Counted from the first letter of the stretch, positions 7,258 through 64,000 are shown. The stretch is DNA of 64,000 nt from a virus (IMGVR_UViG_3300008261_001827:44894-108893), one strand, 5' to 3'. The notes: generated by a model not told the origin, from the sequence alone. Numbers and translations: made by a program.

Positions 7258-7265
7258 TATAAATA
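7258..7265 (+). promoter_or_regulatory. T4-type late promoter TATAAATA upstream of gp21
   Basis: Exact TATAAATA 19 nt before the gp21 ATG. Confidence 0.55.
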
Positions 7266-7962: not shown

Positions 7963-7970
7963 TATAAATA
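7963..7970 (+). promoter_or_regulatory. T4-type late promoter TATAAATA upstream of gp22
   Basis: Exact TATAAATA. It overlaps the first in-frame ATG (7970), which argues for the ATG at 8009 as the real start. Confidence 0.55.
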
Positions 7971-8965: not shown

Positions 8966-8973
8966 TATAAATA
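8966..8973 (+). promoter_or_regulatory. T4-type late promoter TATAAATA upstream of gp23
   Basis: Exact TATAAATA about 40 nt before the gp23 ATG. Confidence 0.55.
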
Positions 8974-20022: not shown

Positions 20023-20364
20023 TTACTCTAGTAATTCACCAATGTCAATCATTTCTTTATCGATTTCTTCACTTTCTATAAATTCTTCTGCAAAGTCTTG
20101 CAGCGGGTGGTGAATACCACTTGCCATAAGATGAAGTGAACGAATCGATTCTAAAAGAAGAATGATTGATGGATAGAACTTTTCCGTGTCTTCTTCAAAT
20201 CTACAACCGGAACGAACCATCTCTACTAGAACAAGGTTCCAAAGACTCTCGGCGACGTCGTTAGAAAAGCTAGTCCTGTATTCAGTTAGCTTTTCTGAAA
20301 GCTCTTCCAGAGACTGCGGTGGTGCGTCGAGCTTCATTTTAGGAAACTTTATGATTTCAGCCAT
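20023..20364 (-). CDS. Hypothetical protein
   Basis: 113-aa acidic ORF. Confidence 0.5.
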   Translation of the reverse strand: MAEIIKFPKMKLDAPPQSLEELSEKLTEYRTSFSNDVAESLWNLVLVEMVRSGCRFEEDTEKFYPSIILLLESIRSLHLMASGIHHPLQDFAEEFIESEEIDKEMIDIGELLE

Positions 20365-21310
20365 TATCTAAACGCCTTAATAGATTAATCCAAGAACTCT
20401 TAAACTTATTTATACCATTCCTCGGCAACGCATGCCGATCTGAAGACGTGATTATGTTTAAAAAGTTCTCATTGTTTCTTTGAGCTTCCAGAAGGTTCTT
20501 TGTCACAATGAACGCGATGTTTGCGTGTTCATGAACATCCTCTGTATATTCGTACATGAGTGTAGCACTCGATGAAGTTTCTGGTAAGGCCGCATACGAA
20601 GGATGAATTACTAGGACGCCAGAACGAATGGCTTCTATCATTGCAATACAAGATGTCTCTTGCCAGATCGAAGGATAGAGAAAGATGTGCGACTCCTTTA
20701 GAGCAGCAAGAACTTCGTCATTGCTCTTGGATCCATGATATGTGATCTTTGGATGAGCCTTTAACTTCTCAAAGAGTTGTTCGTATGGCTTGTCTCTCTG
20801 TTCCCAACCATAGATCTTAAACGATGAGTATACATCTAGGTGAATGTTATCAAACTGTTTCGATAGCGCATCAAAGATTGGATACACAAGTTCCAATCCA
20901 CGGTGCGGAGTCGTATGATAGATGAAACGTATCTGATCCGTTCTCTTTTGGATCGGCGTATACTCGAGTTCGATGGCATTTGGAATTACGGTGCATCTCG
21001 AGTACGGAATACCATACGCCGACACATACTGATCTCTCTGCCAATATGAAACGAAGACGAAGTGATCAAACTTACGCCAACCACCATCCTTAAGAATCTT
21101 ATTCTCCGGGTCCATAACAAGATCGTGGCAGTAGAATATATTCTTTACATCGCGGTGCATCTCTCGAGGGCGCGAGAAGTGAATTGCAAAATTTTGTAGA
21201 AGTTCTTGAGGAACATTATTGAGCAGCCTCTCTCGCATCATCTCAGTGCCTCCACGAGCATTGCGAGAGAGGTTTGTATCTACAACATTTCCTTTGTAAA
21301 TGCAGCTCAT
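20357..21310 (-). CDS. Glycosyltransferase, GT-B fold (GT4-like)
   Basis: C-terminal E(T)SCIAMIEAIRSG motif typical of GT1/GT4-family enzymes. Confidence 0.65.
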   Translation of the reverse strand: MSCIYKGNVVDTNLSRNARGGTEMMRERLLNNVPQELLQNFAIHFSRPREMHRDVKNIFYCHDLVMDPENKILKDGGWRKFDHFVFVSYWQRDQYVSAYGIPYSRCTVIPNAIELEYTPIQKRTDQIRFIYHTTPHRGLELVYPIFDALSKQFDNIHLDVYSSFKIYGWEQRDKPYEQLFEKLKAHPKITYHGSKSNDEVLAALKESHIFLYPSIWQETSCIAMIEAIRSGVLVIHPSYAALPETSSSATLMYEYTEDVHEHANIAFIVTKNLLEAQRNNENFLNIITSSDRHALPRNGINKFKSSWINLLRRLDNG

Positions 21311-29491: not shown

Positions 29492-29701
29492 TTACCAAAT
29501 TCCTAAAGTTCTACCATTACTTGCGATAATAAAGACGCATGTTACAATATGTAATACGATCCAAAAAGTTCTGAATGCTAGCGCACGCTTTACATCTGTC
29601 TGTGTAATTGGCAAGAATTCTGGTTTATCGTCATCTGTAATGCCGATTGGCATGCCAACAGTTCTGGCCCACATTTTTAAGAAGCGTCTTTGGCCACTCA
29701 T
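29492..29701 (-). CDS. Small membrane protein
   Basis: 69 aa with a C-terminal TM helix. Start overlaps the AOX stop. Confidence 0.45.
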   Translation of the reverse strand: MSGQRRFLKMWARTVGMPIGITDDDKPEFLPITQTDVKRALAFRTFWIVLHIVTCVFIIASNGRTLGIW

Positions 29702-30339
29702 TATAGTTTATCAGCCATTCCGTGATTTACGTCTGCGTGACCCTGCTCATCAGATCTTACTGCAATAACAACATCTCTTAACGTAGCATCGTCTGCTAAG
29801 CTATAATAATCGATAGCAATCCGCGGCGCCGGTATGTTTTCTGCTCTTCCTGCATCGATTTCTTCTAGATAATGCGTATAACTAATCACCGCCTGATTCT
29901 CAAAGTAACCGACCATGCGATGAGCTGTTCTAGGAAAGAAAACATACAGTACAAAGTAAAAATGCCAGAACACGAACTGTGCAAATGCCACTATCAAACG
30001 TTCGAACCAATTTGGCCGAGCGATCTCTATGAAGATCATCAAGTGCATACGCTCGTTCTCTGCTTCGTCTAATAGAGTCTTAATCCAACCACGTTTGTCC
30101 GGTTCCATATTACGTAGACTACGAAGGTGTTGCCACATACCGGCTACCATGCCAGGAACACCGGCGACTGTTTCTAATACAACCGCGCGGTGCCCATATC
30201 TTCCAGCAAAAAATGTATCCGCAAACCAACGAAAGAACATAGTAAGCGCGTATGCGAACCTATCGCTAAAGTTTTTTGGATCCGGAATCATTTTTAACTT
30301 CCCCAGCCAGCGAAGTCTTGTTCCTCTACAGGAAACCAT
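29701..30339 (-). CDS. aox: Alternative oxidase (ubiquinol oxidase, AOX)
   Basis: LETVAGVPGMV, EAENERMHL, ISYTHYLEE and RSDEQGHADVNH di-iron ligand motifs, near-collinear with plant and bacterial AOX. Confidence 0.85.
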   Translation of the reverse strand: MVSCRGTRLRWLGKLKMIPDPKNFSDRFAYALTMFFRWFADTFFAGRYGHRAVVLETVAGVPGMVAGMWQHLRSLRNMEPDKRGWIKTLLDEAENERMHLMIFIEIARPNWFERLIVAFAQFVFWHFYFVLYVFFPRTAHRMVGYFENQAVISYTHYLEEIDAGRAENIPAPRIAIDYYSLADDATLRDVVIAVRSDEQGHADVNHGMADKL

Positions 30340-38698: not shown

Positions 38699-39721
38699 CT
38701 ATGATTTGACCAGTGTGATTTTTTCTGAAGCACGAGTAATCGCGGTGTACAGCCATCGTTTCCAATCATCTCGAAAACACCACGACTCGTCGTATATCAG
38801 AACATTATTCCATTGCGAACCCTGTGACTTATGACAGGTGATCGCGTAACCAAAGTCGAACTCTTGACTTCCTTTCAGCATCTTCCAGTCAGGTACTGCT
38901 ACGTCGGCGCTGAAAAAGCTCTTATGAACCTTTACCATAACCGGAAGACCTTCGGTGTCGTCTTCTGGATACAGACTCATGTTTAGAAAACTAGTCTTGT
39001 ACTTAGAGTCAAAGACTCGATCGACTGTAAATATGCCGCCGTTAAAGATTGCACGATCACGGTCGTTACGAAGACAGATGAGCTTATCGTTCTTAATCGG
39101 ATACTCATCGTTTATCTTCAGAAGTTTGCGGACTTTGTAGTTCATAGTATCTCTCGTGGCATTTCGCCCTACGAGGATCTGATTCGCATCCAACGCATCG
39201 CTTGAAGATACCTTAGATACGATACGAGACTCTCCATAATCACCGAGGTCTAACTGTGAACCTTCTCTTACTAGAGTGGACAGATAGACGATAGGATTGT
39301 CTCTGGCCTGACGATGGATCTCAGTCAACATAATGTCAGGCTTTGCTTCTGTAAAGAAACCGGCTCCTGAGACTGGAGGAAGCTGTGCAGGATCGCCGAG
39401 GACTAGAACAGGAACACCAAAAGACAGAAGATCCTTTGCGAGTTCTTCGTCAACCATCGAGCACTCGTCAATGATTAACAGCGATGCTTCCTTAAGGGAA
39501 CTCTCTTTGTTGAGTCTCCATGTAATATCACCAGTCTTCTTATCTGGCTCGGCAATGTATATCATACTGTGGATCGTACACGCAAAATGTGTTGCTAGAG
39601 TGGTCTTGCCGGTTCCGGCGTAACCAAAGATGCGAAAGATCTGCTTCTTTTTGGATTCTGTATAGAACCACTTGTCAACCGCTTTCAGCGCGGCTTCTTG
39701 TTGTGGAGACCACATGCTCAC
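38699..39721 (-). CDS. dda: Dda-like SF1B DNA helicase
   Basis: GYAGTGKTT, IIDECSMV, GDPAQLPPV, AITCHKSQGSQW and YTAITRA motifs. 340 aa. Confidence 0.85.
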   Translation of the reverse strand: MSMWSPQQEAALKAVDKWFYTESKKKQIFRIFGYAGTGKTTLATHFACTIHSMIYIAEPDKKTGDITWRLNKESSLKEASLLIIDECSMVDEELAKDLLSFGVPVLVLGDPAQLPPVSGAGFFTEAKPDIMLTEIHRQARDNPIVYLSTLVREGSQLDLGDYGESRIVSKVSSSDALDANQILVGRNATRDTMNYKVRKLLKINDEYPIKNDKLICLRNDRDRAIFNGGIFTVDRVFDSKYKTSFLNMSLYPEDDTEGLPVMVKVHKSFFSADVAVPDWKMLKGSQEFDFGYAITCHKSQGSQWNNVLIYDESWCFRDDWKRWLYTAITRASEKITLVKS

Positions 39722-51740: not shown

Positions 51741-52046
51741 TTAGCTGTCTGCCACCGTAGAGTCATCGCCAGCTCCAGTAACACCCGCGTCACCTGCCGC
51801 GCCAGCAGTCACTTTCATAACAACCAACGGCTCTGCCTTGTGACGAGTAACACCGTTTTGATTTACATATGTGTGATATAGGTTCCAGCCCGGAGTTCCT
51901 AACCCTTTAGCTTTGTTTGCAGTGACCTGAGCTTCCGTTACGTCTACGAAAAACGCATTATCACGGTCGTTTGATTTATTTGGATCGCTAGCATTGAGCC
52001 ATTTAGGTACAGATGCTAGGGCGTCGGTTTTTCCCCAAAGTGCCAT
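51741..52046 (-). CDS. Hypothetical protein
   Basis: 101 aa. SD AAGGAG. Confidence 0.45.
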   Translation of the reverse strand: MALWGKTDALASVPKWLNASDPNKSNDRDNAFFVDVTEAQVTANKAKGLGTPGWNLYHTYVNQNGVTRHKAEPLVVMKVTAGAAGDAGVTGAGDDSTVADS

Positions 52047-52047
52047 T

Positions 52048-52197
52048 TTATTTCTCCTTGTGATTGAGTTTTAGTTCTTCATTATATTTCTTATTTAACT
52101 CAATATTCGTATTCATTTGTATTTCGTATGGATCGAAGTTATTTATGATATCTTGAACAAGTCTTTCGTTAAAGATCCTCATAAACAGCTTTATCAT
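52048..52197 (-). CDS. Small hypothetical protein (not in ORF track)
   Basis: 49-aa ORF, ATGA-coupled to the upstream gene. Confidence 0.35.
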   Translation of the reverse strand: MIKLFMRIFNERLVQDIINNFDPYEIQMNTNIELNKKYNEELKLNHKEK

Positions 52198-53045
52198 TTC
52201 TTTGTTTCTAGATGCTTCTTTGCGTCCGCTTCTGTATCGAATTCCTTGTAGTACTTACGATCCAGTGTATGAACTGCGTACTTTGCTTTCTTTGGAAACT
52301 TGTTGTAGACTTTAGTTACACGAAGATCTGAAGCTTCATCTAGTTCAGCTTCTTCTTTTGTAGCAAGAACTTTTGCTCTACCGGTCTGCTTAGCGAATGC
52401 TAGGTCACGACCAAACTTACGCTTACGATACTTATCGGAGCCATCGTCACCAGATGGTTGATCTGCGAATGCTTTCTGGCGATATGCGTCCAACTTCTTA
52501 TCAGAGACTTCGTCTAGCTCTACTGATTCTTTACGATTGTATACATATACATCGTGATGAGCCGCGTCTGCTTTTTGGATACGCTGATGCGAATGTCCGC
52601 CTGATTTTCCCGAAACGTCGCTATTTACACGTTTGCCATCTTTATATTGTGCGCTAGGTGCATCCTTAGAATACTTATGTGCATTAGGATTGTCTTTACC
52701 TAAACGACCCTGCAGCACAACCCGCTTACCGGTACCTTTTACAGACTGTTTAAGATCCGCCAATTTCTTTTCGGATGCAGCATCACCAGGTTTGTGAGTA
52801 AATTGATATGAGGAACTCTTGCGTTCTTCATCAAGTTCTGCTTCTTCTTTTCTCATTCCAGCTTCACGTTCAGCGCCAAGCTTAGCAGCAATAGCCATCT
52901 GCTGACGCTTCTTCTGAGACTTACCTTTAAATTGTGGAGCGTCCGAGTCTTGGAAGTCTTTTACCCAATCACCCATATCATCGGATGCTTTGAGTTTTTC
53001 TTCGAGCTCGATCGATTCTTGAATAAATTTAGAAAAGCGCTTCAT
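52194..53045 (-). CDS. Putative capsid-targeted internal protein with ELDE repeat junctions
   Basis: N-terminus MKRFSKFIQESIE. Three [AV]ELDE-[EVA]S repeats homologous to the modules of the 771-aa protein. Late promoter 29 nt upstream. Confidence 0.6.
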   Translation of the reverse strand: MKRFSKFIQESIELEEKLKASDDMGDWVKDFQDSDAPQFKGKSQKKRQQMAIAAKLGAEREAGMRKEEAELDEERKSSSYQFTHKPGDAASEKKLADLKQSVKGTGKRVVLQGRLGKDNPNAHKYSKDAPSAQYKDGKRVNSDVSGKSGGHSHQRIQKADAAHHDVYVYNRKESVELDEVSDKKLDAYRQKAFADQPSGDDGSDKYRKRKFGRDLAFAKQTGRAKVLATKEEAELDEASDLRVTKVYNKFPKKAKYAVHTLDRKYYKEFDTEADAKKHLETKK

Positions 53046-53073
53046 GGTTTCCTCTTGGTGAAAATCTGTTTAA

Positions 53074-53081
53074 TCTATTTA
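53074..53081 (-). promoter_or_regulatory. T4-type late promoter (TATAAATA on minus strand)
   Basis: Forward tatttata, 29 nt upstream of the 53045 ATG, with SD AAGAGGA in between. Confidence 0.5.
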
Positions 53082-53090
53082 TAAAAGTGT

Positions 53091-53615
53091 TTACCACTTT
53101 ACCTTGTCAGCCCAGTATGCAGCAGACATCTTACCCTTTGCAATGTTCTTTCCGTGGCGAGCTTTGAACGACTTTCTCTTCATCTTCATTCTCTCAGACT
53201 CGCCTTCTTTAGGATCGCCTGCCGTCTCTGCGCCCTGTTGACCGAAACGAATCGTCTTTACCTGATTGCCGTCCTTGGCGACCACGATATGACTCTTTTC
53301 TGGATGACTAGGAGTTGCTTTTGGTTTATTAAAACCTTGGACGCCAGCTCTCTCGATACGTGGATCTTTTTCTTCATCGAGATCAGCTTCTTCTTTAAGA
53401 CGCCCTGATTTGGTTCCATGATCGAAGTGTCCACGATTGTTACCTTGCTTGTCTTTAGCAATCTGGTATTTTGTCATTTCGCCGGATGGGTGTGTCATTG
53501 ATTTAACAACTAGTCCACGAGCCTTTGCTGAACTTTCCCATTCGGAAGCATTTTTAAATAGACCACCAACGTTTTCATCTATCTTAGCTTCTACGAACTG
53601 CTTGAAACTCTTCAT
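53091..53615 (-). CDS. Putative capsid-targeted internal protein (basic)
   Basis: N-terminus MKSFKQFVEAKIDE. 174 aa, Lys/Gly-rich. Contains an EADLDEE junction. Confidence 0.55.
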   Translation of the reverse strand: MKSFKQFVEAKIDENVGGLFKNASEWESSAKARGLVVKSMTHPSGEMTKYQIAKDKQGNNRGHFDHGTKSGRLKEEADLDEEKDPRIERAGVQGFNKPKATPSHPEKSHIVVAKDGNQVKTIRFGQQGAETAGDPKEGESERMKMKRKSFKARHGKNIAKGKMSAAYWADKVKW

Positions 53616-53905
53616 TTCATTAACCTTTCTACGGTTTCTATTGCTTTTTTACCATGAGGATGATGTGGATTAATACTAACAACGTCACCGTTCATTAGGT
53701 CTGATATGCTTGCGGCTTTACCTAATCCATCGATAGCTTTATGTAGTGGATCATTTTTATCATAAGTAACTTCGTAGTTCTTTTTTCCTCTAACTTCAAC
53801 CCAACTAGCCTGCTTTGAATCCTTTAGTTTCAACACATCAACATTCTTATCACGAATGTATTGAACAAAGTATGATTCTGATATGTATTCGCTAAACTTT
53901 AGCAT
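53612..53905 (-). CDS. Putative capsid-targeted internal protein (start uncertain: ATG at 53905, ATG at 53923 or TTG at 53932)
   Basis: Chosen start gives MLKFSEYISE, matching the leader family. Confidence 0.45.
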   Translation of the reverse strand: MLKFSEYISESYFVQYIRDKNVDVLKLKDSKQASWVEVRGKKNYEVTYDKNDPLHKAIDGLGKAASISDLMNGDVVSINPHHPHGKKAIETVERLMK

Positions 53906-53906
53906 C

Positions 53907-54284
53907 TTATCCGCCGAACTCATGGCCAGCAACGCGACGCATCTGCTTATTGAACTCAGCCTGTGATGGCTTTTCTTTATAGAGTTTGATCGAGATCTCA
54001 GGGCGTTCCTTGCCCTTGATGCGCCAGTTCATACCCTTTTCCTTGTGTTCAGGATCCGTTGTCTTTACAACACGGCGCTTGTAACCGGCTTCCCAAGTTT
54101 CCGAAGCTTCGGAAACGGCTGTGTCGCACTGACGACAACAATCAGGCGTTCCGCAGTTTACATGCTCGTTTACTGGAACGCAGTTAGGAACTTCTCTACC
54201 ATCTTTCATTTTCATACCTACTTGACGATATCCAACCCAGCAGGGTCCTTTGTTTTCTTCTAGAAATTTCTTAAACGATTTCAT
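53907..54284 (-). CDS. Putative capsid-targeted internal protein, Cys-rich
   Basis: N-terminus MKSFKKFLEENK. CVPVNEHVNCGTPDCCRQC cysteine cluster. Confidence 0.55.
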   Translation of the reverse strand: MKSFKKFLEENKGPCWVGYRQVGMKMKDGREVPNCVPVNEHVNCGTPDCCRQCDTAVSEASETWEAGYKRRVVKTTDPEHKEKGMNWRIKGKERPEISIKLYKEKPSQAEFNKQMRRVAGHEFGG

Positions 54285-54292
54285 TTTATTAC

Positions 54293-54826
54293 CTATTCTT
54301 CGTAATATGGGTTATTAGGATCTGCATCTTTAGTAACATCTGGCCACCAATCCAATTCAAATCTTTTTCCATCAGCAAACATTTTCTTCATTGATTTAAT
54401 ACGCTTTTCATATTCAGCTTTAGATGGTTTAACATTTCCTTCCACAACATCCATTACATACTGAAGAGTTACTGCGTTTGCACTAAGACTCGCGCATCTT
54501 CCTCCGACTTCGCCTTTAAGATGATCTATCAGTATGCTCTCGCTGCTCATTGCGAGAGCATTAGAGAGTTCGTGCGGTACCTTTAGATCTATATATGAAT
54601 AAACATAGTCATAGTGTGGTACAGGAGAAGCATGCAGAATGTATTCGTCTAACACTTCTACTCTCTTAAATCCATCTTTGTTATACCAAACGGCTCTCAT
54701 TTTTGTAAGTTCGTCAGGAAGGCCAAAGAAATTGGTAAGATGCATTACATACTCTGCGGGCTCGTCATTATTCCAGCGAGATAGGATATTACTAATATCG
54801 TTTGAAAACTGCTTAAACGACTTCAT
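54293..54826 (-). CDS. Putative capsid-targeted internal protein
   Basis: N-terminus MKSFKQFSNDIS. 177 aa. Confidence 0.55.
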   Translation of the reverse strand: MKSFKQFSNDISNILSRWNNDEPAEYVMHLTNFFGLPDELTKMRAVWYNKDGFKRVEVLDEYILHASPVPHYDYVYSYIDLKVPHELSNALAMSSESILIDHLKGEVGGRCASLSANAVTLQYVMDVVEGNVKPSKAEYEKRIKSMKKMFADGKRFELDWWPDVTKDADPNNPYYEE

Positions 54827-56154
54827 ACCTTTATCTCCGGGTTAGGTGTACGAAAATTCTTTTTTCTCATAATAGTCTTTGATATAACAACAAGTTCGTC
54901 ATTCTTACGATCGTATTCCACCGCTATCGGCATGTTAAGATCCGTCTGCATATCCTTAATGACAGCTTCGGCATCTACAAACTTACTTAATGATTTATCA
55001 CCGCCCTGATACTTCTTATAGATCTTCTGTATCATACCAGCAAGTTCTTTCATATCGATACATGGATCGTTACGAGAATCGGTCATACGTTCGCGGAAAT
55101 GCTTTGTGAATTCAAAGTTTACATTGAACCTTTTAAACATACGATCTACAAACTGTTCAAAAGCTTGCATGTGAGCGACTGTAAAGATAGGACATTGATC
55201 TGCTTCTAGTACTAACTCTTCTTTTAATCTATTAGTAATTTTTTTAAATCTACGAAATGCTTTTTCTTCAATTTGACTAACTCTAGAGATGCTAAGGTTT
55301 AACTCTTTTGCTATCTGTCCCAAGGTCATATTATCAACGAATCGCATTTTATATACTTCAAGTTCTCTATCTCTTGCGGCGGCGCTTTTAGCATCGCCTG
55401 GTTTTGTTTTCTTGTACATAGCTATTATCTTTTGCAAATCAATTTTAGAATCAATGCTAATAGCTTCATTAACTTTACGTTGAGCCTTTATCCACTCAGA
55501 AGCAGCAGAAGAAGCGGGTTTTGTCTTTGCCCAGCCTGCTATCTTTTTATATGTGGAAAGGACAGCACCTTCGTAGTTTGATCCTGTAGAATTATCTACG
55601 ATAAACATCTTCTGACGAAAGAAGTTCTGAAACTTTCCGAGGTTCTTTTGAACATCTTTCCACATTCTATTCACTTCAGAATCTGATAATGATCTTTCTC
55701 TCTTTCTATTACGATCGAGCGCAGTGTCAAGATCTGTGTTCACAAATATCATAGCAACTTCGTATCCAATACCACGAAGCATATCAGCTTGCTTTTGTAT
55801 CTTTTCGTAGTCCTTACCGGTTCCATCAATCACTAGACCAAGGCGACCGTCAATCGCAAGTTGCATCATTTTCGTGGTAAGAGCCTTCGCCTGTCCACGT
55901 ACTTCTTGACCCTTTGGAGAATAGATATCTTCAGGAGTCGGTTTTAGACCAACTTTCTTTAGAGCATTTTCGAACGCGATGTCTGAGTTAATCACTTTAA
56001 AACCAAGAGATGTAAGAGCAGTTCTGCCAACTATAAAAGACTTGCCGGATCCTGGACCACCAGCAAGAAAGATTGCTTTGAAGATGGAAGGGTCGTTAAC
56101 TCCTTCGTTAATGAACTGCTTAAAACTTAGCACTTTATTCACCACCGTTTCCAT
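54823..56154 (-). CDS. P-loop kinase (zeta/Pnk/AAA_33-like) fused to a sigma70 region-4-like HTH, with leader motif (alternative GTG start at 56133)
   Basis: FLAGGPGSGKSF Walker A. MTLGQIAKELNLSISRVSQIEEKAFRRFKK resembles sigma70 region 4.2. Residues 9-18 read LSFKQFINEG. Confidence 0.6.
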   Translation of the reverse strand: METVVNKVLSFKQFINEGVNDPSIFKAIFLAGGPGSGKSFIVGRTALTSLGFKVINSDIAFENALKKVGLKPTPEDIYSPKGQEVRGQAKALTTKMMQLAIDGRLGLVIDGTGKDYEKIQKQADMLRGIGYEVAMIFVNTDLDTALDRNRKRERSLSDSEVNRMWKDVQKNLGKFQNFFRQKMFIVDNSTGSNYEGAVLSTYKKIAGWAKTKPASSAASEWIKAQRKVNEAISIDSKIDLQKIIAMYKKTKPGDAKSAAARDRELEVYKMRFVDNMTLGQIAKELNLSISRVSQIEEKAFRRFKKITNRLKEELVLEADQCPIFTVAHMQAFEQFVDRMFKRFNVNFEFTKHFRERMTDSRNDPCIDMKELAGMIQKIYKKYQGGDKSLSKFVDAEAVIKDMQTDLNMPIAVEYDRKNDELVVISKTIMRKKNFRTPNPEIKV

Positions 56155-58738
56155 CGCCCCCGTCTGAACTACTGCTCTTGCCAGGAGGCATCTTTCTCAT
56201 AGTTCCGTCAGCCATACGAATAGCCACATTTTTAATCTTTATCTTCTTTCCTTCAAAGCCCATAGCAGTTGCTTCTAGTACGTCCTGTATTACGTCGCCA
56301 TCAGAAAGAGCTGCATCGTAGTGTCTAACTTTGAATAACTTTCCATCTTCGTCACGAACTCTTAGCCAAGCAACGTCTCCACCGATTACAGTACCCATGC
56401 GCGCTGCGCCGTCAAACATATCCATAGAATGACGATTAAAACGAACAGTGTCACCTCTTTTGAAAGGACCGTATGTATCAGTTAACATAAACTCCTTTAG
56501 GGATTTCTGACCAGGAGTATCTTTCTTATAGGTCTTTACGACACTATCCGTTCCCTGTTCTCTTTTACTTGGGTCGGGGTTGCCTTCGCTAATAGATTTA
56601 GTTAGACTCTTTTTTGCTGCTGCGTCTCTTGACTTTGCAGCATCAAGCATACGATCGTGCTTTCTTGCGTCGGCTTCTTTTTCCTGTGCAATCTTCATCT
56701 TCATCTTTGAAGTTTCTACATTCTCAAATGCATGGCCAATACGAGTATGTTTTACTTCGCCAGATAGCTTCTTTTGCATAACGCGAGTCATATTCTTCTT
56801 TTCGGTTCCAGTGATTTCATCTGGTGTTCCTTTTTCAAATCTATCAATGTCGCCATCAACATCTAAGTCAATAGACTTCATTGCGTGCTGACCCATCTGA
56901 GCAGCAGATAATCCAATGCCAAGTTTGTGCTTAAGACCCTTTGAAACCTTTACTGATTTGTCTGGAGTTTTTGTATGAACAAACGGATGAACCGCTGTTG
57001 GTGAAACGGCTTCACTTCTTACTTTTGCTGCAAGATCTGAGTCTGCCTTACCCCAAGTACCCTTACCCTTTGTTGCGAATGAATTCACTCGTGCAAATCC
57101 CCACTGAGTAGGAGTGGTTCCTGGTCTATGACCGGTTCTCCAAGCAGCAACACCACGATCAAACACCTTCTTAAGAATACCATAAGAGATGCCTGATTTC
57201 TCAGCCTTCTTCTTTAGTCCTTCCGATGGATCTGATTCCATTAGAGCATCAAACTCTTCAGAGAACACGAAATCTTCCATCGCATTCATGAGTTCGTATA
57301 CTTCTTCTGCAATATACTCTTGGCTTTCGTTTATATCTTTCTTCGTCTTATACATCTTAAAGCGTTTGTCAAACTTAACGGATCCGTTCTTTTCGAGAGC
57401 CATGTGTGGACGACTACGTACTTTAGTGTCTGCGAGTGAAGCCTCCTGTAGAGACTCTCCAAACATCTGCTTAAACTTCTTCGTATGAACAGAAGTTTTT
57501 GTCTTTGCTTCGGCGTCACCAGGTGCTGGTTTATATGAAGACTGTTCATCATCACTCTTTTTCGAATATGTAGCAAAATGACGAGCACGAGCAGCTTTCG
57601 TATCTTTATCTAACCCGGCATAATAACCCTTTGGTTGAGAACCCGGAAGATGCTTTACATCTTTATCCTGTGGCTTTATCGTTCTTTCATCTAGAAATGC
57701 TTCAAACATTTCGTTCTTATCTTGATTAGGAGAAAGAACGCTCTGTAGTCTTTCTCTCTCAGCAGATCTTATCTGTGGTAGTAATTTAGTAGCGATACGA
57801 GAGATAACCGCCTTTGGTATCTTCATAACTCTCTTATCCAATGCAATCTTTTCGGCAGGCGTCATCTCTGAATACTTCTTATTCTTCATAAGACGATCAC
57901 GAATAAACTCAAGAGCTCTCTTCCTCGATCTCTTGAGTAGCTTTTCCTTCGGAGCCATCTTTCTTTTTGCTCTCTCACGAGCAGCCATTATCTTTGTTCT
58001 GTAGCGCTTCATAACCAGACCACGCTTGCGTCTCTGAGCAAGAGTAAGTGGTTCCGCTTCCGATAATGTTTCTTCGTTGATGTTCTCTGACATATTCATT
58101 CCGCCTCTAACAAGGTTATATACTTTCTCAGCTGAAGATTTTAGTTTACTAGGTAGTCCATTCTTAAATGCTTCCATATTACCCTGAGCTGCAAGTGATC
58201 TCATCTTTGAAGCAGACATCCCAGTAACGTCATCTGCGTCAGGATCTCTTTCACCTGCTGATATAACTGATATGCTTTCGAAATTAAACTCTTTTCCGTT
58301 ATAGCGGTTTAGTAGAGTTTCAAACTCGCCGACTCTATCGGATCCTACGACTATGACTAGATCCGAATACTTTCCGGATAGTTCCTTAGAAACCTCAATG
58401 ATCGTTTTTGCTGTAGACTTTTTGACCGGCTTGCCAAAAGCTTTCTGTGCAAGTGATAGCTTTTCTTCATACGATAGTGGATTCTTTTTAGCATCCTGAG
58501 AGTGCGACATGTAGATGGCCGGATCGGCCTTTCTCTTTATCGCTTCCGATACTACTTTATTTACTAGCTTTTCGTGTCCGACGGTGATAGGATTGAACCT
58601 TCCAAAACTAATCACTGCCGTTCTCTTTACGGCTTCGGTCATAGTTGGTTCTGTTTCTATGTATTTAGTAGGATCGAATTCTTTAAAGCTCTTACGATCC
58701 TTCTTCTTTGGATCAATCTTTTTCTTATCGTCGTCCAT
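56135..58738 (-). CDS. 867-aa multidomain protein with N-terminal HxGH nucleotidyltransferase (NMNAT/PPAT-like) domain
   Basis: GRFNPITVGHEKLV (HxGH) and GMSASKMR (ISSTxxR-like) motifs. KSFKEF near the N-terminus. Late promoter 29 nt upstream. Internal HRPG motif (AAWRTGHRPGTTPTQWGFARVNSF). Confidence 0.65.
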   Translation of the reverse strand: MDDDKKKIDPKKKDRKSFKEFDPTKYIETEPTMTEAVKRTAVISFGRFNPITVGHEKLVNKVVSEAIKRKADPAIYMSHSQDAKKNPLSYEEKLSLAQKAFGKPVKKSTAKTIIEVSKELSGKYSDLVIVVGSDRVGEFETLLNRYNGKEFNFESISVISAGERDPDADDVTGMSASKMRSLAAQGNMEAFKNGLPSKLKSSAEKVYNLVRGGMNMSENINEETLSEAEPLTLAQRRKRGLVMKRYRTKIMAARERAKRKMAPKEKLLKRSRKRALEFIRDRLMKNKKYSEMTPAEKIALDKRVMKIPKAVISRIATKLLPQIRSAERERLQSVLSPNQDKNEMFEAFLDERTIKPQDKDVKHLPGSQPKGYYAGLDKDTKAARARHFATYSKKSDDEQSSYKPAPGDAEAKTKTSVHTKKFKQMFGESLQEASLADTKVRSRPHMALEKNGSVKFDKRFKMYKTKKDINESQEYIAEEVYELMNAMEDFVFSEEFDALMESDPSEGLKKKAEKSGISYGILKKVFDRGVAAWRTGHRPGTTPTQWGFARVNSFATKGKGTWGKADSDLAAKVRSEAVSPTAVHPFVHTKTPDKSVKVSKGLKHKLGIGLSAAQMGQHAMKSIDLDVDGDIDRFEKGTPDEITGTEKKNMTRVMQKKLSGEVKHTRIGHAFENVETSKMKMKIAQEKEADARKHDRMLDAAKSRDAAAKKSLTKSISEGNPDPSKREQGTDSVVKTYKKDTPGQKSLKEFMLTDTYGPFKRGDTVRFNRHSMDMFDGAARMGTVIGGDVAWLRVRDEDGKLFKVRHYDAALSDGDVIQDVLEATAMGFEGKKIKIKNVAIRMADGTMRKMPPGKSSSSDGGDGNGGE

Positions 58739-58766
58739 ATTGCCCTCTAAGGAACTGTGTTCTTTC

Positions 58767-58774
58767 TATTTATA
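58767..58774 (-). promoter_or_regulatory. T4-type late promoter (TATAAATA on minus strand)
   Basis: Forward tatttata, 29 nt upstream of the 58738 ATG, with SD AGAGGG in between. Same spacing as the 53074 copy. Confidence 0.5.
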
Positions 58775-58777
58775 ATG

Positions 58778-59338
58778 TCAAGCTTTTAAAGTAAAATTGT
58801 CTTTAGAAAAGAACTTGGTAGCACAATACTCTTTTTCTACTGGATAGTCGTGAGGACAACCTTTTTCCCTCTTCATATCTGGATCTGTAAATGTCGCCGT
58901 TTCTTTCCAGTCAAAACCGTAGACGTCTACGTGCTTTGGTTTACAAGATGCTATATAATCTAAAGCGATAAGACCCGTTGTTGGGTTGTTGTGATTGCCA
59001 GAGTGCTTTTTCAGTTCTTTATACATATGTTCCGGATAGACACAATCAACCAAATGAATATTATTCGGACTGCGGCCTTGATGACCTGCATGCATCTTCT
59101 TTATATGTTTGGGTATCTTATGAAAGAATGACTTATACTCTGCGGCATTCCAAAATACCCAGACGTTAGTCTTTGTTCCATGACTCTTATTTACTTCATG
59201 TCTTGTATACAATACAGCTGCTTTATTAATACGTACTACTACATCGTGCTCGTCGATTTCGGCACCGTAGTTCTTATTGAAAAGAGCCATAGAGTTGCCA
59301 ATGACGGCAACAGTTTTTCCTTCAAACCATTCTTTCAT
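58778..59338 (-). CDS. GT42/CstII-like (sialyltransferase-family) glycosyltransferase, paralog 1
   Basis: KTVAVIGNSMAL...DVVVRIN and TGLIALDYIASC...VDVYGFD parallel the CstII motifs. Confidence 0.55.
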   Translation of the reverse strand: MKEWFEGKTVAVIGNSMALFNKNYGAEIDEHDVVVRINKAAVLYTRHEVNKSHGTKTNVWVFWNAAEYKSFFHKIPKHIKKMHAGHQGRSPNNIHLVDCVYPEHMYKELKKHSGNHNNPTTGLIALDYIASCKPKHVDVYGFDWKETATFTDPDMKREKGCPHDYPVEKEYCATKFFSKDNFTLKA

Positions 59339-59841
59339 TTTCTTAACACAAAGGTTTCGTTGTTACTAAAGAATCTATTTATGCAATACTGCTTTTCTAA
59401 TTTAAAATTGTGCCTATCGTCTTCTAGTTTTTTATCGTGAAAAGACGGAGTTTCTTTCCAATCGTATCCATAGACGTATACCTTTGCCGGATTATAAAGA
59501 GAGATAAGGTGAAGAATTCTTAGACCAGTTGATGGTCTATGATGCCCAAGGTCTTTCTTTAACCACTCTATGTCTATTTCGGGGTTGTTTAAGATCTCGA
59601 CTATATGATCGCAAGTCTTATTCGTAACTCTGTTCGGTTTCATAGTCTTAAACCAGTTTAAAAACCAGACATCTGTTCTCTTACCATGAGATTTAGTATC
59701 TTCAGGGTTTAACATAAAGAAGCCCCGTTTGATCCTGCAGACAACCTGCGCAGAATCGATTTCTGGCCCATACTTACTATGAAACAGACTCTTAGCGTTT
59801 CCGACTATAGAAACAGTCTTTCCATCAAATATCTCTCTCAT
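59335..59841 (-). CDS. GT42/CstII-like glycosyltransferase, paralog 2
   Basis: KTVSIVGNAKSLF...AQVVCRIKRG, STGLRILHLISL...VYVYGYDW. Paralog of the gene at 58778. Confidence 0.55.
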   Translation of the reverse strand: MREIFDGKTVSIVGNAKSLFHSKYGPEIDSAQVVCRIKRGFFMLNPEDTKSHGKRTDVWFLNWFKTMKPNRVTNKTCDHIVEILNNPEIDIEWLKKDLGHHRPSTGLRILHLISLYNPAKVYVYGYDWKETPSFHDKKLEDDRHNFKLEKQYCINRFFSNNETFVLRK

Positions 59842-60515
59842 AGTCCTCTCTGAAGACTATAATCCATATACATTCTTTCTCTATGCCACTCATCGGCCAT
59901 AGGTGTAGTCGCAAAATCGTGGAAACATGGCGTTCCTAGAGTATAGTGAAGAAGCTTAGCGTGCTTATTCTCTCCGAACTCGTCAGGTAGCCAGTTCCAT
60001 ACGATAGGAAGCTCGCCAATAAGGCTGTCATCCAACCAAGTAAAGCGATGTACCTGGGCCCCAGTTGAGTTCTGAACAAACTCTGGAGTTACACCACGAT
60101 TCGCCTCGTGACCACAGTTCCATAGTATCACACTTGACCAGTTTTTGCGAGGATAATTTTCGTTCTTTGCACCAAGATATTTTTCAGTCATACGAGTCTT
60201 ATAATCGTGCTTGACGACCATGACTGCTTTTGACTCGTCTCTCATGTTCCATAGTTCGGTGATGTCGTCTCTTAGGATCATATCTCCGTCAAGGAACAAT
60301 GCCCAACCTTTATAGTTCATAAGGTGCGGAATAAGGAACCTACTGTAGATGAAGTGATTGCTTCCATCCGTATGTTTCTCTTCGTATCCGCTCAAGAGAT
60401 TAAGAGCGAGTGGATTAAAACTAACCGGAGAGGTTGACAGCCTCATGATTGAGTTTGCGCATACGTGATATGCAGCTGCTTCTCTTTTGTCAAAACCGAT
60501 AAAAACGGGTATCAT
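59838..60515 (-). CDS. GT-A fold glycosyltransferase (DxD)
   Basis: ALFLDGDMIL DxD motif. 225 aa. Confidence 0.5.
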   Translation of the reverse strand: MIPVFIGFDKREAAAYHVCANSIMRLSTSPVSFNPLALNLLSGYEEKHTDGSNHFIYSRFLIPHLMNYKGWALFLDGDMILRDDITELWNMRDESKAVMVVKHDYKTRMTEKYLGAKNENYPRKNWSSVILWNCGHEANRGVTPEFVQNSTGAQVHRFTWLDDSLIGELPIVWNWLPDEFGENKHAKLLHYTLGTPCFHDFATTPMADEWHRERMYMDYSLQRGL

Positions 60516-61054
60516 GACAGTTCCTTTCTTCTACTATGCATTATATCTATCGTTAAGTTCTTAAAGAACATTTTTTCTGGTTGGCATAACATCCACTCTA
60601 CTACGTTTGCGATATATCCTGTATCTATACGAGGATATTCTTTTCTTGAGTCCGTCATAGGAGTGTTCATTCTTCCGAGTTTTAAATGTACAACTTTACA
60701 GTCGGAGTCTATTAGTTGCAGCTGAGAACATGCTTTTTCTAGCGCAGACTTATGAACCGCATACTCGTTGATGGTGTCTTTATTTCCATCAGCACTCACG
60801 CTTCCAATGTTAATGATTGTGCAGTTTCTATATTTATTTTGTTCGAACAACTGATATAACAGATCAACTTGAGCATACGCATGATACGCGTTATTGATAT
60901 AGACATCAAAGTTTTCTACTTGAAAAGGTGTGATATCTTTTGAAAGATCGTGTCCGTTTGATCTACTAAGACCTATCGTATGGTGTTTCTCCGATAGTCT
61001 ATCGTATAGAGTCTTTCCAAGACCACTAGTATGACCAGTTACTACTACCTTCAT
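60512..61054 (-). CDS. Short-chain dehydrogenase/reductase (SDR)
   Basis: VVVTGHTSGLGK N-terminal dinucleotide motif. YAVHK catalytic YxxxK. Confidence 0.6.
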   Translation of the reverse strand: MKVVVTGHTSGLGKTLYDRLSEKHHTIGLSRSNGHDLSKDITPFQVENFDVYINNAYHAYAQVDLLYQLFEQNKYRNCTIINIGSVSADGNKDTINEYAVHKSALEKACSQLQLIDSDCKVVHLKLGRMNTPMTDSRKEYPRIDTGYIANVVEWMLCQPEKMFFKNLTIDIMHSRRKELS

Positions 61055-62028
61055 GTTATACTATGTCTTTCAATATCACACGCAACCATCTCGCATATCA
61101 TAGACTCAAATGAATACTTAGGTTCCCAACCGAGTAGTCTCTTTGCTTTATCTGAGTCTGCGTGTAGGCTGTGAAGCTCGTTTGGTCTTTGGAATTCGTT
61201 ATCGGATATAACATAGTCTTCCCAGTTTGTTATTCCAGCAGACAGGAATGCGATCCTACACAGATCCCTTACGCTGTGCTTTACTCCTGTCGCTATGATG
61301 AAGTCTTCAGGGTTGTCCTGCTGCAACATCAACCACTGAGCACGGACGTAATCCTTCGCGTGACCCCAATCGCGTTCTGCATCTAGGTTACCAAGAACGA
61401 TCTTATCACCCTTTCCAGTTACAATTCTTGCGACGCCGTCGGTTATCTTTCTTGAAACAAACTCAATACCACGAATAGGAGACTCGTGGTTAAATAGAAT
61501 ACCTGTGCAGGCAAAGGCATCGTAGCTCTCTCTATAGTTTCGTGTAATGTGGTATCCATAGAGTTTAGCAATACCGTATGGACTTACCGGTTCGAAAGGA
61601 GTCTTCTCTGTCTGTCTTCCGTCTATATTACTGTTTCCAAACATCTCGCTCGTACCCGCTTGATAGAATTTAGTGTCGGGTTTGATACGACGAATTGCTT
61701 CTAGACAGTTAAGAGGACCGAGAGCATCAACGTGAGTAGTTACATACGCAAGTCTCCAAGAACCGCCTACGAAACTCTGGGCTGCGAGGTTATAGAACTC
61801 ATCCGGCCGAACTATCTCCATCACATCCATTAGACTGCATGGATCCGTAACATCTCCTACGATTGTCTTAAGACCCTTACTAAATAGATCTAGAAACTCT
61901 ATGTTGCTCCAATTCGGACTCGTGTATCTCTTAACGACTCCGTATACGACGTAACCTTTTTCTAGCAAAAAATCGGCGAGGTAGCACGCGTCCTGGCCAG
62001 GGAATCCTGTAATCAGCGCAGTCTTCAT
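61051..62028 (-). CDS. gmd: GDP-mannose 4,6-dehydratase
   Basis: ALITGFPGQDACYLADFLLEKGY N-terminus. YGIAKLYG catalytic YxxxK. 325 aa, typical Gmd length. Confidence 0.85.
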   Translation of the reverse strand: MKTALITGFPGQDACYLADFLLEKGYVVYGVVKRYTSPNWSNIEFLDLFSKGLKTIVGDVTDPCSLMDVMEIVRPDEFYNLAAQSFVGGSWRLAYVTTHVDALGPLNCLEAIRRIKPDTKFYQAGTSEMFGNSNIDGRQTEKTPFEPVSPYGIAKLYGYHITRNYRESYDAFACTGILFNHESPIRGIEFVSRKITDGVARIVTGKGDKIVLGNLDAERDWGHAKDYVRAQWLMLQQDNPEDFIIATGVKHSVRDLCRIAFLSAGITNWEDYVISDNEFQRPNELHSLHADSDKAKRLLGWEPKYSFESMICEMVACDIERHSIT

Positions 62029-63203
62029 TTTATATTCCTTATTATATCTGCGACCATGTTTATATTATCGTCTAAGTTGACACAGTCGTTTCCTATAAAG
62101 AATCCATTTTCATGAAGATCGTCCGCGCCTTCAAATGTTCCAACACTATCCCAGTTCAAAAGATTGATCACTGGGTTCTTCATAAAGTTTCCTGCCACGA
62201 TCGGTCTCGTTTCTACCTCACGTTGTGTAAGAACTTGAATGACTTCTTTTCTTCTTCCCTTTAGGTGTCCTTCTAGGACCAATCCAAAACCAAACCAACT
62301 ACTGGTACCATGCTCGGATTGTAATCTAATACCAGGGACGTTGCGAAACGCTGCTTTGGCTGTAGTTGCGTTCTGTCTGCGTTTCGTCATCATATCCGGC
62401 CACTTTCTGAGTTGTTCTTGCCCAACAGCACCACTCATCTCAAGCGGACGAACGCAATAGCCAGGAAGAACGAACTTAAAGCTATCCTCGAACGGATCGC
62501 CAGTTTTCTGATGTAGAGCACTACCTTCAGACATATCACGTATCCAGCCATGTGCTCTTAGACTCTTTAGGTACTCGTATGTTAGGTTGTCGTTCGTAAG
62601 AACCATTCCGCCTTCCATAGTCTGCATGTGATGGCTAAAGAAGAAACTGAACGTACCCATCTCGCCAACGGATCCACAGAATGATGAACCTTCCCAAGCT
62701 CCTAGACTCTCACAGTTATCCTCAAGAAGAGCAATGCCGCGCTCGTCGCATATCGTCTTAAGTTCTTCAAGTTCTGCTGGGTTGCCTAATAGGTTAACAA
62801 CAAACACCGCAGCTGTCTCGTCATCTATCGCGTCAATCACCTTCTTTGTATCTATATTGAATGTGTTAGGATCCACATCAACGAAGCGAAGCTTATAACC
62901 CCACTGATGTACTGGGAAATACGTTGTGCTCCAACTCACCGCAGGAACAATGATGTTTCCTTTATTCTTGTACTTAGGATTGAGAGCAAGCGCAGCAAGT
63001 GCTATTAGGTTAGCGCTACTCCCACTATTCGTCATGACTGCGTATTTACTACCGAAGAACTTGGCAAATTGTTTTTCAAATTTCTTAACCTCTTCACCCA
63101 TAGTATACCGCCCGCTTGCGATTACACGATGAATTGCGTCTATCTCTTCCCGGCCCCAGGTGTCACTCGCAAGTTTGTACTTCATTTCATACTGCCCTTC
63201 CAT
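62025..63203 (-). CDS. DegT/DnrJ/EryC1-family PLP enzyme, ColD-like (GDP-4-keto-6-deoxy-D-mannose 3-dehydratase-like)
   Basis: FSFFFSHHMQTMEGG: a His-His pair replaces the usual PLP-binding Lys, as in ColD/E1 dehydratases. Adjacent to gmd. Confidence 0.7.
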   Translation of the reverse strand: MEGQYEMKYKLASDTWGREEIDAIHRVIASGRYTMGEEVKKFEKQFAKFFGSKYAVMTNSGSSANLIALAALALNPKYKNKGNIIVPAVSWSTTYFPVHQWGYKLRFVDVDPNTFNIDTKKVIDAIDDETAAVFVVNLLGNPAELEELKTICDERGIALLEDNCESLGAWEGSSFCGSVGEMGTFSFFFSHHMQTMEGGMVLTNDNLTYEYLKSLRAHGWIRDMSEGSALHQKTGDPFEDSFKFVLPGYCVRPLEMSGAVGQEQLRKWPDMMTKRRQNATTAKAAFRNVPGIRLQSEHGTSSWFGFGLVLEGHLKGRRKEVIQVLTQREVETRPIVAGNFMKNPVINLLNWDSVGTFEGADDLHENGFFIGNDCVNLDDNINMVADIIRNIK

Positions 63204-63925
63204 TGTGTTATACTATTTATGAATTTAAATGTTTTCTTGTTCGTAATTTCTTCCATTGTAAACTGCCCCCACGAAAGACTTGCAAATAGTTGTGTTCTTT
63301 CTTTTTCTTTCAATTTTTCCAACTCAGAAAAAGAATGCGTTAATGGATATGCTGCGCAGTATCTTTCACATATGACCGGTATACCTCTTTCCAAAGCAGT
63401 AAGCGCAACCGCACTGTTAAACGCGACGACACAATACGCATTATTAAGAACGTTATCAAGAGATTCATCATAATGATATTTTTCTGTATTTTTAGCAGTA
63501 ATCATTAGATTGTCCATAACTGGACCAGACTTTCTTCTAACTACTATTGGCCTATCGGTGTACTCTTTTATTTTTTTAATCGTTTCGGCTTCCCAATTTG
63601 TTTTATTAAATACTCTAGCGACAGTATCACTAGGCGGAAAAACAACAATATTCTGTTTCTTATTGAAATTGTATTCTTTAAATTTAATATCAAATAGTTT
63701 CAAACGTTCGGCGTCAACATTCGGTAATATAGTGTTTTGAACAAATCCATTCTTTGTCACTCGCATCCAATTTGGATATTTGTAACCTGGATTAAAGTAT
63801 GCATGATCTATATAATAAAAATTAAGATTATCACGCAAGGCCATGTTTAGGATATGCGCGTTTCCTCTTAATAAGCCTGCAAAAGCTACTGAGTTATAGC
63901 CAGGTAATAGATTTTTAACTTTCAC
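63182..63925 (-). CDS. Hypothetical protein, possible GT-B-like glycosyltransferase
   Basis: NAYCVVAFNSAVALTALERGIPVI resembles a GT-B C-terminal donor-binding motif. Confidence 0.4.
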   Translation of the reverse strand: MKVKNLLPGYNSVAFAGLLRGNAHILNMALRDNLNFYYIDHAYFNPGYKYPNWMRVTKNGFVQNTILPNVDAERLKLFDIKFKEYNFNKKQNIVVFPPSDTVARVFNKTNWEAETIKKIKEYTDRPIVVRRKSGPVMDNLMITAKNTEKYHYDESLDNVLNNAYCVVAFNSAVALTALERGIPVICERYCAAYPLTHSFSELEKLKEKERTQLFASLSWGQFTMEEITNKKTFKFINSITQWKGSMK

Positions 63926-64000
63926 TTGTGAACTTTGGCTCTGAAATACTTGATGCCGCGTGTAAATTATTTTCGCATCACTAGAATGACCGAATGACTT

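Follow-up and report, generated by a model that had tools for sequence, protein, structure and literature searches.

A 64,000-nt stretch of viral DNA (IMGVR_UViG_3300008261_001827:44894-108893; hereafter the window, with positions counted from its first letter) ends in a cassette of nucleotide-sugar and glycosyltransferase genes. Comparison of the encoded proteins with known enzymes makes it very probable that the cassette serves the synthesis of a rare 3,6-dideoxy sugar linked to GDP. Taken as a whole, it is best explained, and in our judgement probably rightly, as a dideoxyhexose pathway combined with soluble glycosyltransferases whose likely acceptor is a virion protein. The seven open reading frames (ORFs) described in an earlier interpretation made without database searches (the sequence-only reading) are present within positions 58778-63925; all are encoded by the minus strand, and their stop and start codons overlap. 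The database matches reported below lie far outside what chance would produce. The gene order given there, which began with the GDP-mannose 4,6-dehydratase (GMD) and ended with a possible GT-B protein, had to be revised: the transcript starts with the GT-B-like gene (unk288), followed by genes for the DegT-family protein (ColD), GMD, a short-chain dehydrogenase/reductase (SDR), a GT8-like protein and two GT29-like proteins (Table 1).

A GDP-mannose 4,6-dehydratase next to a ColD orthologue

The 325-amino acid (aa) GMD matched Pfam family PF16363 (GDP_Man_Dehyd) with 364.6 bits and aligned over its full length (residues 2-322) with the Pseudomonas aeruginosa enzyme (PDB entry 1rpn; E 1.2e-101). 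Both catalytic motifs, T-x-E (GTSEMFG) and Y-x3-K (SPYGIAKLYG), are present in this alignment. With 364 bits on TIGR01472, the protein fell slightly short of the strict equivalog cut-off (415). Judged by these matches it is a genuine GMD, in agreement with its original assignment.

The 392-aa DegT-family protein (Pfam PF01041, 247.9 bits) aligned with Escherichia coli ColD (PDB entry 2gms) over residues 7-388 with 47.9% identity (383 bits, E 1.3e-113). Other PDB matches included E1, the CDP-sugar 3-dehydrase (151 bits, 1e-43), and aminotransferases (at best 120 bits, 1e-34 or weaker), with perosamine synthetase reaching 93 bits (1e-25); the best NCBIfam match was RfbH. The window motif FSFFFSHHMQTMEGG aligns with FYSHHIATMEGG of ColD such that Ser-His-His coincides with S187-H188-H189, the first His, which replaces Lys, being the catalytic position at which PDB entries 2r0t and 3b8x carry the mutations H188K and H188N. 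His-His was retained in all 30 non-identical viral ColD homologues collected, where the region of motif FFSHHMQTMEGG reads FFSHHMQ[T/C]MEGG, while two paralogues (31% identical) in contigs with ColD homologues have Lys at the His position. By homology, the protein is thus a ColD orthologue, a predicted 3-dehydratase and not an aminotransferase, as the sequence-only reading had deduced from the His-His pair. The GMD gene overlaps the ColD stop codon, and the pairing is retained at all SAR11 loci and at the majority of the viral ones. No deposited phage protein exceeded 36% identity to this ColD in a protein search of 50,697 phage records.

The proposed pathway and a mini-SDR

The following route is proposed: (i) by orthology, GMD would turn host GDP-mannose into GDP-4-keto-6-deoxy-D-mannose; (ii) the ColD orthologue, with its active-site His, would strip off the C3 hydroxyl in a reaction dependent on pyridoxamine 5'-phosphate (PMP), yielding GDP-4-keto-3,6-dideoxy-D-mannose; (iii) the SDR may reduce the C4 ketone to give a GDP-3,6-dideoxyhexose; and (iv) seven soluble predicted glycosyltransferases would assemble a glycan on a cytoplasmic acceptor. 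Neither the cassette nor the sequence flanking it gave a manA/B/C-type match in family scans, and GDP-mannose must therefore be supplied by the host. For this reason the cassette is not the self-contained pathway for which it had been taken; the cluster also continues beyond position 64000. It nevertheless constitutes a tractable three-enzyme pathway (GMD, ColD, SDR) with a clear biochemical prediction.

The SDR is only 180 aa long. A set of 5.8 billion proteins contained 99 homologues, nearly all of 170-187 aa, with R31 nearly invariant and T6, G7, G11 and G13 (TGxxxGxG), N54, S85, Y98 and K102 fully so. Since these homologues share the short length and the catalytic residues, a truncated protein or pseudogene was ruled out. 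The AF2 (AlphaFold) model had a predicted local distance difference test value (pLDDT) of 95.6, and its Foldseek neighbours were NADP-dependent classical SDRs with no sugar extended SDR among them. Hence the length given in the sequence-only reading was correct, but the suggested relationship to ColC was not: a ColC/GDP-fucose-synthase type was ruled out for a classical SDR that lacks their C-terminal substrate domain. The gene directly follows GMD even in contigs where SDR identity is only 43-52%. From this conserved adjacency, the intact NADP site and the Ser-Tyr-Lys triad we infer that this 'mini-SDR' is the 4-ketoreductase of the pathway. Its family may provide a dideoxyhexose stereoisomer not known as a GDP-sugar.

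Distant mini-SDR homologues occur in unrelated settings, namely radical-SAM and NeuB clusters. On a Tara scaffold (L050, 4492-10178), a homologue of 31% identity is accompanied by two NeuB genes, a CMP-sugar synthetase (CTP_transf_3), an MptE-like protein and a 250-aa GT29-like protein; there, GT29-like enzymes go together with a nonulosonic-acid pathway.

Configuration of the sugar

Formation of L-colitose requires epimerisation at C5. The gene tables covered two parts of the window (9.1-30 kb, 38.8-64 kb) and the adjoining 7.4 kb outside it, in a genome of roughly 200 kb, and these parts contained no extended-SDR or Epimerase-family gene other than GMD. Colitose is therefore unproven, as the SDR is not ColC-like and an extended-SDR epimerase/reductase is missing from the annotated parts. 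Of the colitose-type sugar proposed in the sequence-only reading, a GDP-3,6-dideoxyhexose is supported, whichever its configuration at C4 and C5. As a 5-epimerase/reductase of the ColC/GDP-fucose-synthase type is missing, a D-series sugar may be formed instead of L-colitose.

Genuine GDP-L-colitose would be formed if the mini-SDR both epimerised C5 and reduced C4, or if a ColC/GDP-fucose synthase of the host, or one encoded elsewhere in the phage genome, completed the synthesis. This idea draws on the presence of the two committed colitose enzymes, GMD and the ColD orthologue, on the canonical trio of cyanophage ACG-2014f (see below), and on a remote viral ColD contig (L027) that has a GDP-fucose-synthase-like extended SDR (108 bits) and no mini-SDR in its place. 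Given the missing C-terminal domain of the 180-aa protein and GMD as the sole extended SDR in the parts covered, we consider it rather unlikely. An ordinary sugar aminotransferase making a perosamine-type GDP-4-amino sugar, as membership in the DegT family and the label 'aminotransferase' of homologues in PHROGs and deposited phage records might imply, is so improbable that it can be set aside, given the exchange of the Schiff-base Lys for His in the window protein and in every viral homologue collected, the coexistence of Lys-bearing paralogues in the same contigs, and the wide gap between the ColD and perosamine synthetase scores.

Predicted glycosyltransferases

Several glycosyltransferases had been recognised beside the pathway genes in the sequence-only reading, and matches to GT8-like, GT29-like and KpsC/WbbB-like proteins were indeed obtained for the cassette ORFs. 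The number of four given there applies to the window, which holds one GT8-like, two GT29-like and one KpsC/WbbB-like protein. It rises to seven when the genes upstream of unk288 are counted on a metagenome contig (L001) that is 100% identical to window positions 52025-64000. On this contig the cassette runs about 2.3 kb past the window, which adds three predicted transferases; the full cassette has 11 genes and measures roughly 7.5 kb. The complete set comprises one GT8-like protein, three mini GT29-like proteins, two KpsC/WbbB-like paralogues and one orphan DxD protein (unk263).

The GT8-like protein (225 aa) scored 35.8 bits on Pfam PF01501 (cut-off 24.3), a match that covers residues 46-113 only, and hit phrog_28018 at E 1e-37. 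Its DxD motif (D76-x-D78 in FLDGDM) is invariant in eight homologues, and a profile search of the PDB gave weak matches to WbbM and to a GT8 structure. The description as a GT-A DxD transferase can thus be retained.

The two following proteins, 39% identical to each other, are tandem paralogues as originally described, but they are assigned to GT29 and not to GT42/CstII, for which no match was obtained with Pfam (E <= 0.01) or with the family profile against the PDB. On Pfam PF00777 (cut-off 23) they scored 34.1 bits (168 aa) and 53.8 bits (186 aa), each covering part of the model. For the 186-aa protein 167 homologues were found, with a length of about 185 aa among the 120 listed. A profile of 33 family members matched exclusively mammalian GT29 structures in the PDB (E <= 1), the best being ST3Gal-I (8.7e-8), to which the L- and S-like blocks align; an H-x4-E block (H163, E168) is invariant. 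Both paralogues share what we take to be L-, S- and VS-like sialylmotif blocks. The pair is predicted to represent miniature GT29 (sialyltransferase-family) proteins.

The possible GT-B protein of the sequence-only reading was an incomplete ORF (63182-63925, 247 aa) cut by the window end; on L001 it comprises 288 aa and starts at window-equivalent position 64048. The GT-B assignment itself agrees with the structure model of unk288, which has a modified GT-B fold closest to the KpsC/WbbB beta-Kdo transferases, and on the strength of this model the protein may be related to them. A profile of unk288 and its paralogue unk301 found no match among PDB sequences, and Pfam Capsule_synth was reached by two of 17 relatives, at E 0.047 at best. 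The two paralogues differ in a short motif, which is R-R-K-S in unk288 (K-P in its relatives) and R-L-H-P in unk301. Miniature GT29-like and KpsC-like transferases could broaden the donor and acceptor range of these folds.

In metagenome contigs that are otherwise 100% identical, the KpsC-like gene carries deletions corresponding to window positions 63356-63532 and 63687-63885. One contig (L006) has a clean 177-bp in-frame deletion and another (L005) a frameshifting deletion of 199 bp; neither has obvious direct repeats at its flanks. The 301-aa paralogue, too, is shortened or split in some variants, indicating transferase polymorphism at the population level.

The orphan protein unk263 has the invariant residues D122-x-D124 and H234-x-K236-G237. 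Its PDB profile search gave no significant match; Pfam gave weak GT2 and GT8 hints, and hhalign aligned its DxD region with that of the GT8-like family at a probability of 4%. A GT-A fold is plausible from these residues and hints. Since unk263 stays beside ColD in nearly all distant viral contigs, with three to four copies in L037, L042 and L044, it is, by association, the best candidate for the dideoxyhexosyl transferase.

Table 1. Cassette genes and downstream boundary, in the direction of transcription (window positions unless stated otherwise).
Feature	Position	Strand	Remarks
Third GT29-like protein, GT29c	beyond window, on L001
301-aa paralogue of the KpsC-like protein, unk301	beyond window, on L001		R-L-H-P motif
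Orphan 263-aa DxD protein, unk263	L001 6623-7414 (window-equivalent about 64045-64836)		outside window
Putative KpsC/WbbB-like (GT-B-derived) glycosyltransferase, unk288	63182..64000	-	leaves window; full gene 288 aa
ColD orthologue, predicted pyridoxal 5'-phosphate (PLP)/PMP-dependent GDP-4-keto-6-deoxy-D-mannose 3-dehydratase	62025..63203	-	orthology
GDP-mannose 4,6-dehydratase, short P. aeruginosa type	61051..62028	-	Pfam, PDB match
Mini classical SDR, 180 aa; putative NADPH-dependent 4-ketoreductase acting on the ColD product	60512..61054	-
GT8-like retaining GT-A glycosyltransferase with DxD (FLDGDM)	59838..60515	-	Pfam, phrog
Mini GT29-like protein (sialyltransferase family), 168 aa	59335..59841	-	Pfam
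Mini GT29-like protein (sialyltransferase family), 186 aa	58778..59338	-	Pfam, family profile
T4-type late-promoter motif TATAAATA	58767..58774	-	29 nt upstream of the 867-aa gene

Conservation of the cassette

ColD homologues are encoded at 41 IMG/VR loci. The order GT29c-unk301-unk263-unk288-ColD-GMD-SDR-GT8-GT29a-GT29b-867aa is kept in about 20 IMG/VR contigs, across which per-gene amino-acid identity ranges from roughly 50 to 98%; three of these contigs (L013, L014, L023) are 183-218 kb long. ColD, GMD, SDR and unk263 persist together at 43-59% identity, and in distant viral contigs with a ColD of 50-59% identity it is especially unk263 that is still found beside it. In two related large phage contigs (L052, L053) the flanks and the GT29 pair recur, alongside other sugar genes and without GMD or ColD. 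The locus can therefore be regarded as a variable glyco-island at a fixed genomic position, built on a constant GT29 pair and with ColD-GMD-SDR as an accessory module.

ColD-GMD pairs were also found in Pelagibacteraceae (ColD 50-56% and GMD 45% identical), there without unk263, mini-SDR, GT8 or unk288. The scan used catches only sequences that share exact peptide words with the query and is thus uninformative on the closest bacterial relative.

Possible acceptors of the glycan

The slot occupied by the cassette is flanked by a virion structural gene (phrog_1645) on one side and a late-promoter gene on the other. None of the 11 cassette proteins contains a transmembrane-like segment (maximum Kyte-Doolittle value over 19 residues, KD(19), 1.34), and family scans detected no Wzx, Wzy, WaaL, ABC-transporter or phosphoglycosyltransferase family in any of them. 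Because the enzymes are soluble and the cassette lies between a structural and a late gene, we infer that a phage virion protein would be the acceptor, ranked slightly ahead of a host lipid-linked glycan. The lack of a membrane or export component weakens an O-antigen conversion; the pattern as such fits both glycosylation of phage proteins in the cytoplasm and host lipid-linked intermediates exported by the host. Chlorovirus capsid glycans are made with a virus-encoded GMD. Glycosylated virions of mycobacteriophages, described in PMC12582341 (citing Freeman 2023), provide a phage precedent.

Several observations count against a virion-directed dideoxyhexose pathway of this kind. ColD, GT8 and KpsC/WbbB-like families are typical of lipopolysaccharide (LPS) or capsule synthesis with lipid-linked acceptors. 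The usual donors of GT29-like and KpsC-like folds are CMP-ulosonic acids; as a CMP-sugar pathway is not visible, several of the transferases may be unrelated to the dideoxyhexose. A nearly invariant Cys119 makes an epimerising activity of the mini-SDR possible, and the stereochemistry of the SDR step is not predictable. Finally, a terminator-like hairpin lies between the cassette and the nearest upstream late promoter.

The strongest competitor is remodelling of the host surface, whereby sugars including the dideoxyhexose would be added at the cytoplasmic face to lipid-linked LPS, O-antigen or capsule intermediates and exported by the flippase, ABC transporter and ligase of the host. The cell surface would then be altered during infection, for superinfection exclusion or to reduce the loss of progeny on debris. 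Such a role would suit the LPS/capsule-type families to which ColD, GMD, GT8 and the KpsC/WbbB-like proteins belong, the ColD-GMD pairs of Pelagibacteraceae genomes, and the slot, which is hypervariable like host O-antigen loci; similar clusters of large T4-like cyanophages are conventionally taken as LPS or cell-wall modification genes (PMC9602691). It fits less well with a cassette that encodes neither membrane proteins nor an initiating transferase, a flippase, a polymerase or a ligase, and with SAR11 loci devoid of the virus-specific unk263, mini-SDR, GT8 and unk288. Moreover, within the window the phage looks strictly lytic, as neither the gene tables nor the family scans for the window and the flanking sequence revealed an integrase, repressor or other lysogeny-type family. 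We regard host-surface remodelling as a possibility to be taken seriously, though not as the probable function.

DNA hypermodification, in which the transferases would place sugars on modified phage bases as in the glucosylated hydroxymethylcytosine of T4, comes to mind with a T4-like phage, this group being the classic case of DNA glycosylation. It is weakened by a canonical ThyA (348.7 bits, cut-off 327), which is the sole thymidylate-synthase-family gene in the window and adjoins a dihydrofolate reductase gene. No hydroxymethylase was seen, no cassette protein matched the T4 alpha- or beta-glucosyltransferase families in Pfam or PHROGs, nor did the unk288 model match them in the PDB, and GDP-dideoxyhexose is not known to act as a donor in DNA modification. 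This function is accordingly very improbable.

Relation to known systems

The bacterial GDP-L-colitose pathway (ManB/ManC, Gmd, ColD, ColC; E. coli O55/O111, Yersinia pseudotuberculosis) shares with the cassette the entry from GDP-mannose and adjacent, orthologous GMD and ColD genes, the phage ColD being 48% identical with a conserved equivalent of His188. Differences are a 180-aa classical SDR instead of ColC, the lack of manB/manC and of Wzx/Wzy/WaaL-type partners, and a lytic-looking T4-like carrier. O-antigen and capsule loci dependent on Wzx/Wzy or ABC transporters have an initiating phosphoglycosyltransferase and membrane proteins for export and polymerisation, all of which the cassette lacks.

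In large T4-like cyanophages, genes for GMD, GDP-fucose synthase, fucosyltransferases and further transferases are already on record (PMC9602691). Their sugar clusters (ACG-2014f gp223-225, S-CAM7 gp230-232, S-SCSM1 ORF121-135) likewise have GMD beside a His-His DegT protein, followed by glycosyltransferases. In ACG-2014f (L056 5020-8137, gp223-225) and S-CAM7 (L057 5085-8143), genes for GMD, a second nucleotide-sugar SDR and a His-His DegT protein (FYFGHHMTT[IV]EGG) are adjacent; in ACG-2014f, the one scored, GMD reached 555 bits, and the second SDR was GDP-fucose-synthase-like with a score of 420 bits. By these matches the trio is of the canonical colitose type, although mostly annotated as 'aminotransferase' and 'nucleotide-sugar epimerase'; one S-CAM7 record already labels the DegT protein a putative 3-dehydrase. 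A predicted phage-borne 3,6-dideoxyhexose pathway was therefore already present in public genomes, while a literature search for phage colitose or ColD, or for GT29 in phages, yielded nothing relevant. The cyanophage dehydratase is 31-33% identical to the window ColD, both matching the E1/RfbH model best in NCBIfam. Unlike the window phage, the cyanophages keep a GDP-fucose-synthase/ColC-like extended SDR, and their transferase sets differ, with no GT29-like or KpsC-like protein named in those of their gene tables that were consulted. Distinctive features of the cassette described here are a true ColD orthologue, the mini-SDR in place of ColC, the set of GT29-like and KpsC-like proteins, and the architecture of the island.

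Chlorovirus PBCV-1, with viral GMD, GMER and cytosolic transferases, and mycobacteriophages resemble the cassette in combining nucleotide-sugar enzymes and soluble transferases without export machinery. In both, the glycan ends up on virion proteins, which for the phage studied here is a prediction. The sugars also differ, PBCV-1 being a eukaryotic virus (fucose, rhamnose) and mycobacteriophages being actinobacteriophages (hexoses). Among the transferases, KpsC (GT107) and WbbB (GT99), retaining beta-Kdo transferases, have no detectable sequence similarity to the window protein, in line with the missing PDB match. Animal GT29 sialyltransferases such as ST3Gal-I share L-/S-/VS-like blocks with the window pair, which exceeds the Pfam cut-off; however, the phage proteins comprise 168-186 aa compared to a catalytic domain of about 270 aa or more, and they have no membrane anchor and no CMP-sialic acid pathway nearby.

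Nucleotide-sugar and transferase clusters of large aquatic phages are usually classed as "LPS genes" without test. A variable slot next to structural genes combined with the lack of export functions makes this cassette a good case on which to ask whether virions are glycosylated by tailed phages of Gram-negative hosts which, if true, would bear on host range, grazing and immune recognition. One may go further and suppose that aquatic T4-like phages with genomes of roughly 200 kb include a clade that makes a non-colitose GDP-3,6-dideoxyhexose via a previously undescribed 180-aa mini-SDR that has displaced ColC, and that coats its virion proteins with a complex, strain-variable glycan by means of sialyl- and Kdo-transferase-like enzymes acting on host CMP-sugars. 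All of this together is distinctly unlikely to hold; if it did, chlorovirus capsid glycosylation would have its counterpart in phages, with a diversity like that of O-antigens.

Genomic setting

That the cassette is phage-borne, as proposed in the sequence-only reading, agrees with the remaining gene content of the window. The replicon is an uncultured T4-like myovirus with genes for tail sheath, gp20-type portal, scaffold, gp23-type major capsid protein, ribonucleotide reductase, primase and a Dda-like helicase. A DNA-level search found no close relative among deposited phages, the matches being about 140 nt long at about 71% identity. The capsid protein is at most 66% identical to those of deposited phages, the best being Sinorhizobium phages phiM12 and phiN3 and the Methylophilales phage Melnitz. 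No tRNA genes were found in the window.

The T4 late-promoter octamer TATAAATA is four-fold enriched in the window (12 sites compared to 3.07 expected), and most copies immediately precede structural or late genes; examples of sites are 553-560, 7258-7265, 7963-7970 and 8966-8973 on the plus strand and 53076-53083 on the minus strand. The copy that precedes the 867-aa gene (Table 1) sets the downstream boundary of the cassette. Scanning for sigma-70 promoters was uninformative (34 sites, 34.4 expected). On the 5' side, L001 shows a terminator-like hairpin, a DUF1127 gene and the structural protein gene (phrog_1645, E 1e-146).

The 867-aa protein (56135-58738, minus strand) combines a DUF5824 domain with an N-terminal domain that weakly resembles cytidylyltransferases (PF01467, 25 bits; phrog_3041), and its gene is kept as the downstream flank of the glyco-island, also in relatives without ColD. 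A function as CMP-sugar synthetase was set aside in view of its own late promoter, the weak PF01467 match, a model of the NMN-adenylyltransferase and not the KdsB/NeuA type, and its presence next to ColD-less slots.

At window positions of about 38784-38908, the contigs Ga0569701_000346 and Ga0569701_000098 abut within the Dda-like helicase gene, for which no exact product is on record; this suggests an assembly break or strain variation. A GT4-type (Glycos_transf_1) glycosyltransferase of 317 aa is encoded distant from the cassette (20357-21310, minus strand), adjoining an RNase H gene. A 212-aa ORF (29701-30339, minus strand) matches PF01786, the alternative oxidase/PTOX family; auxiliary genes of this kind are typical of cyanophages.

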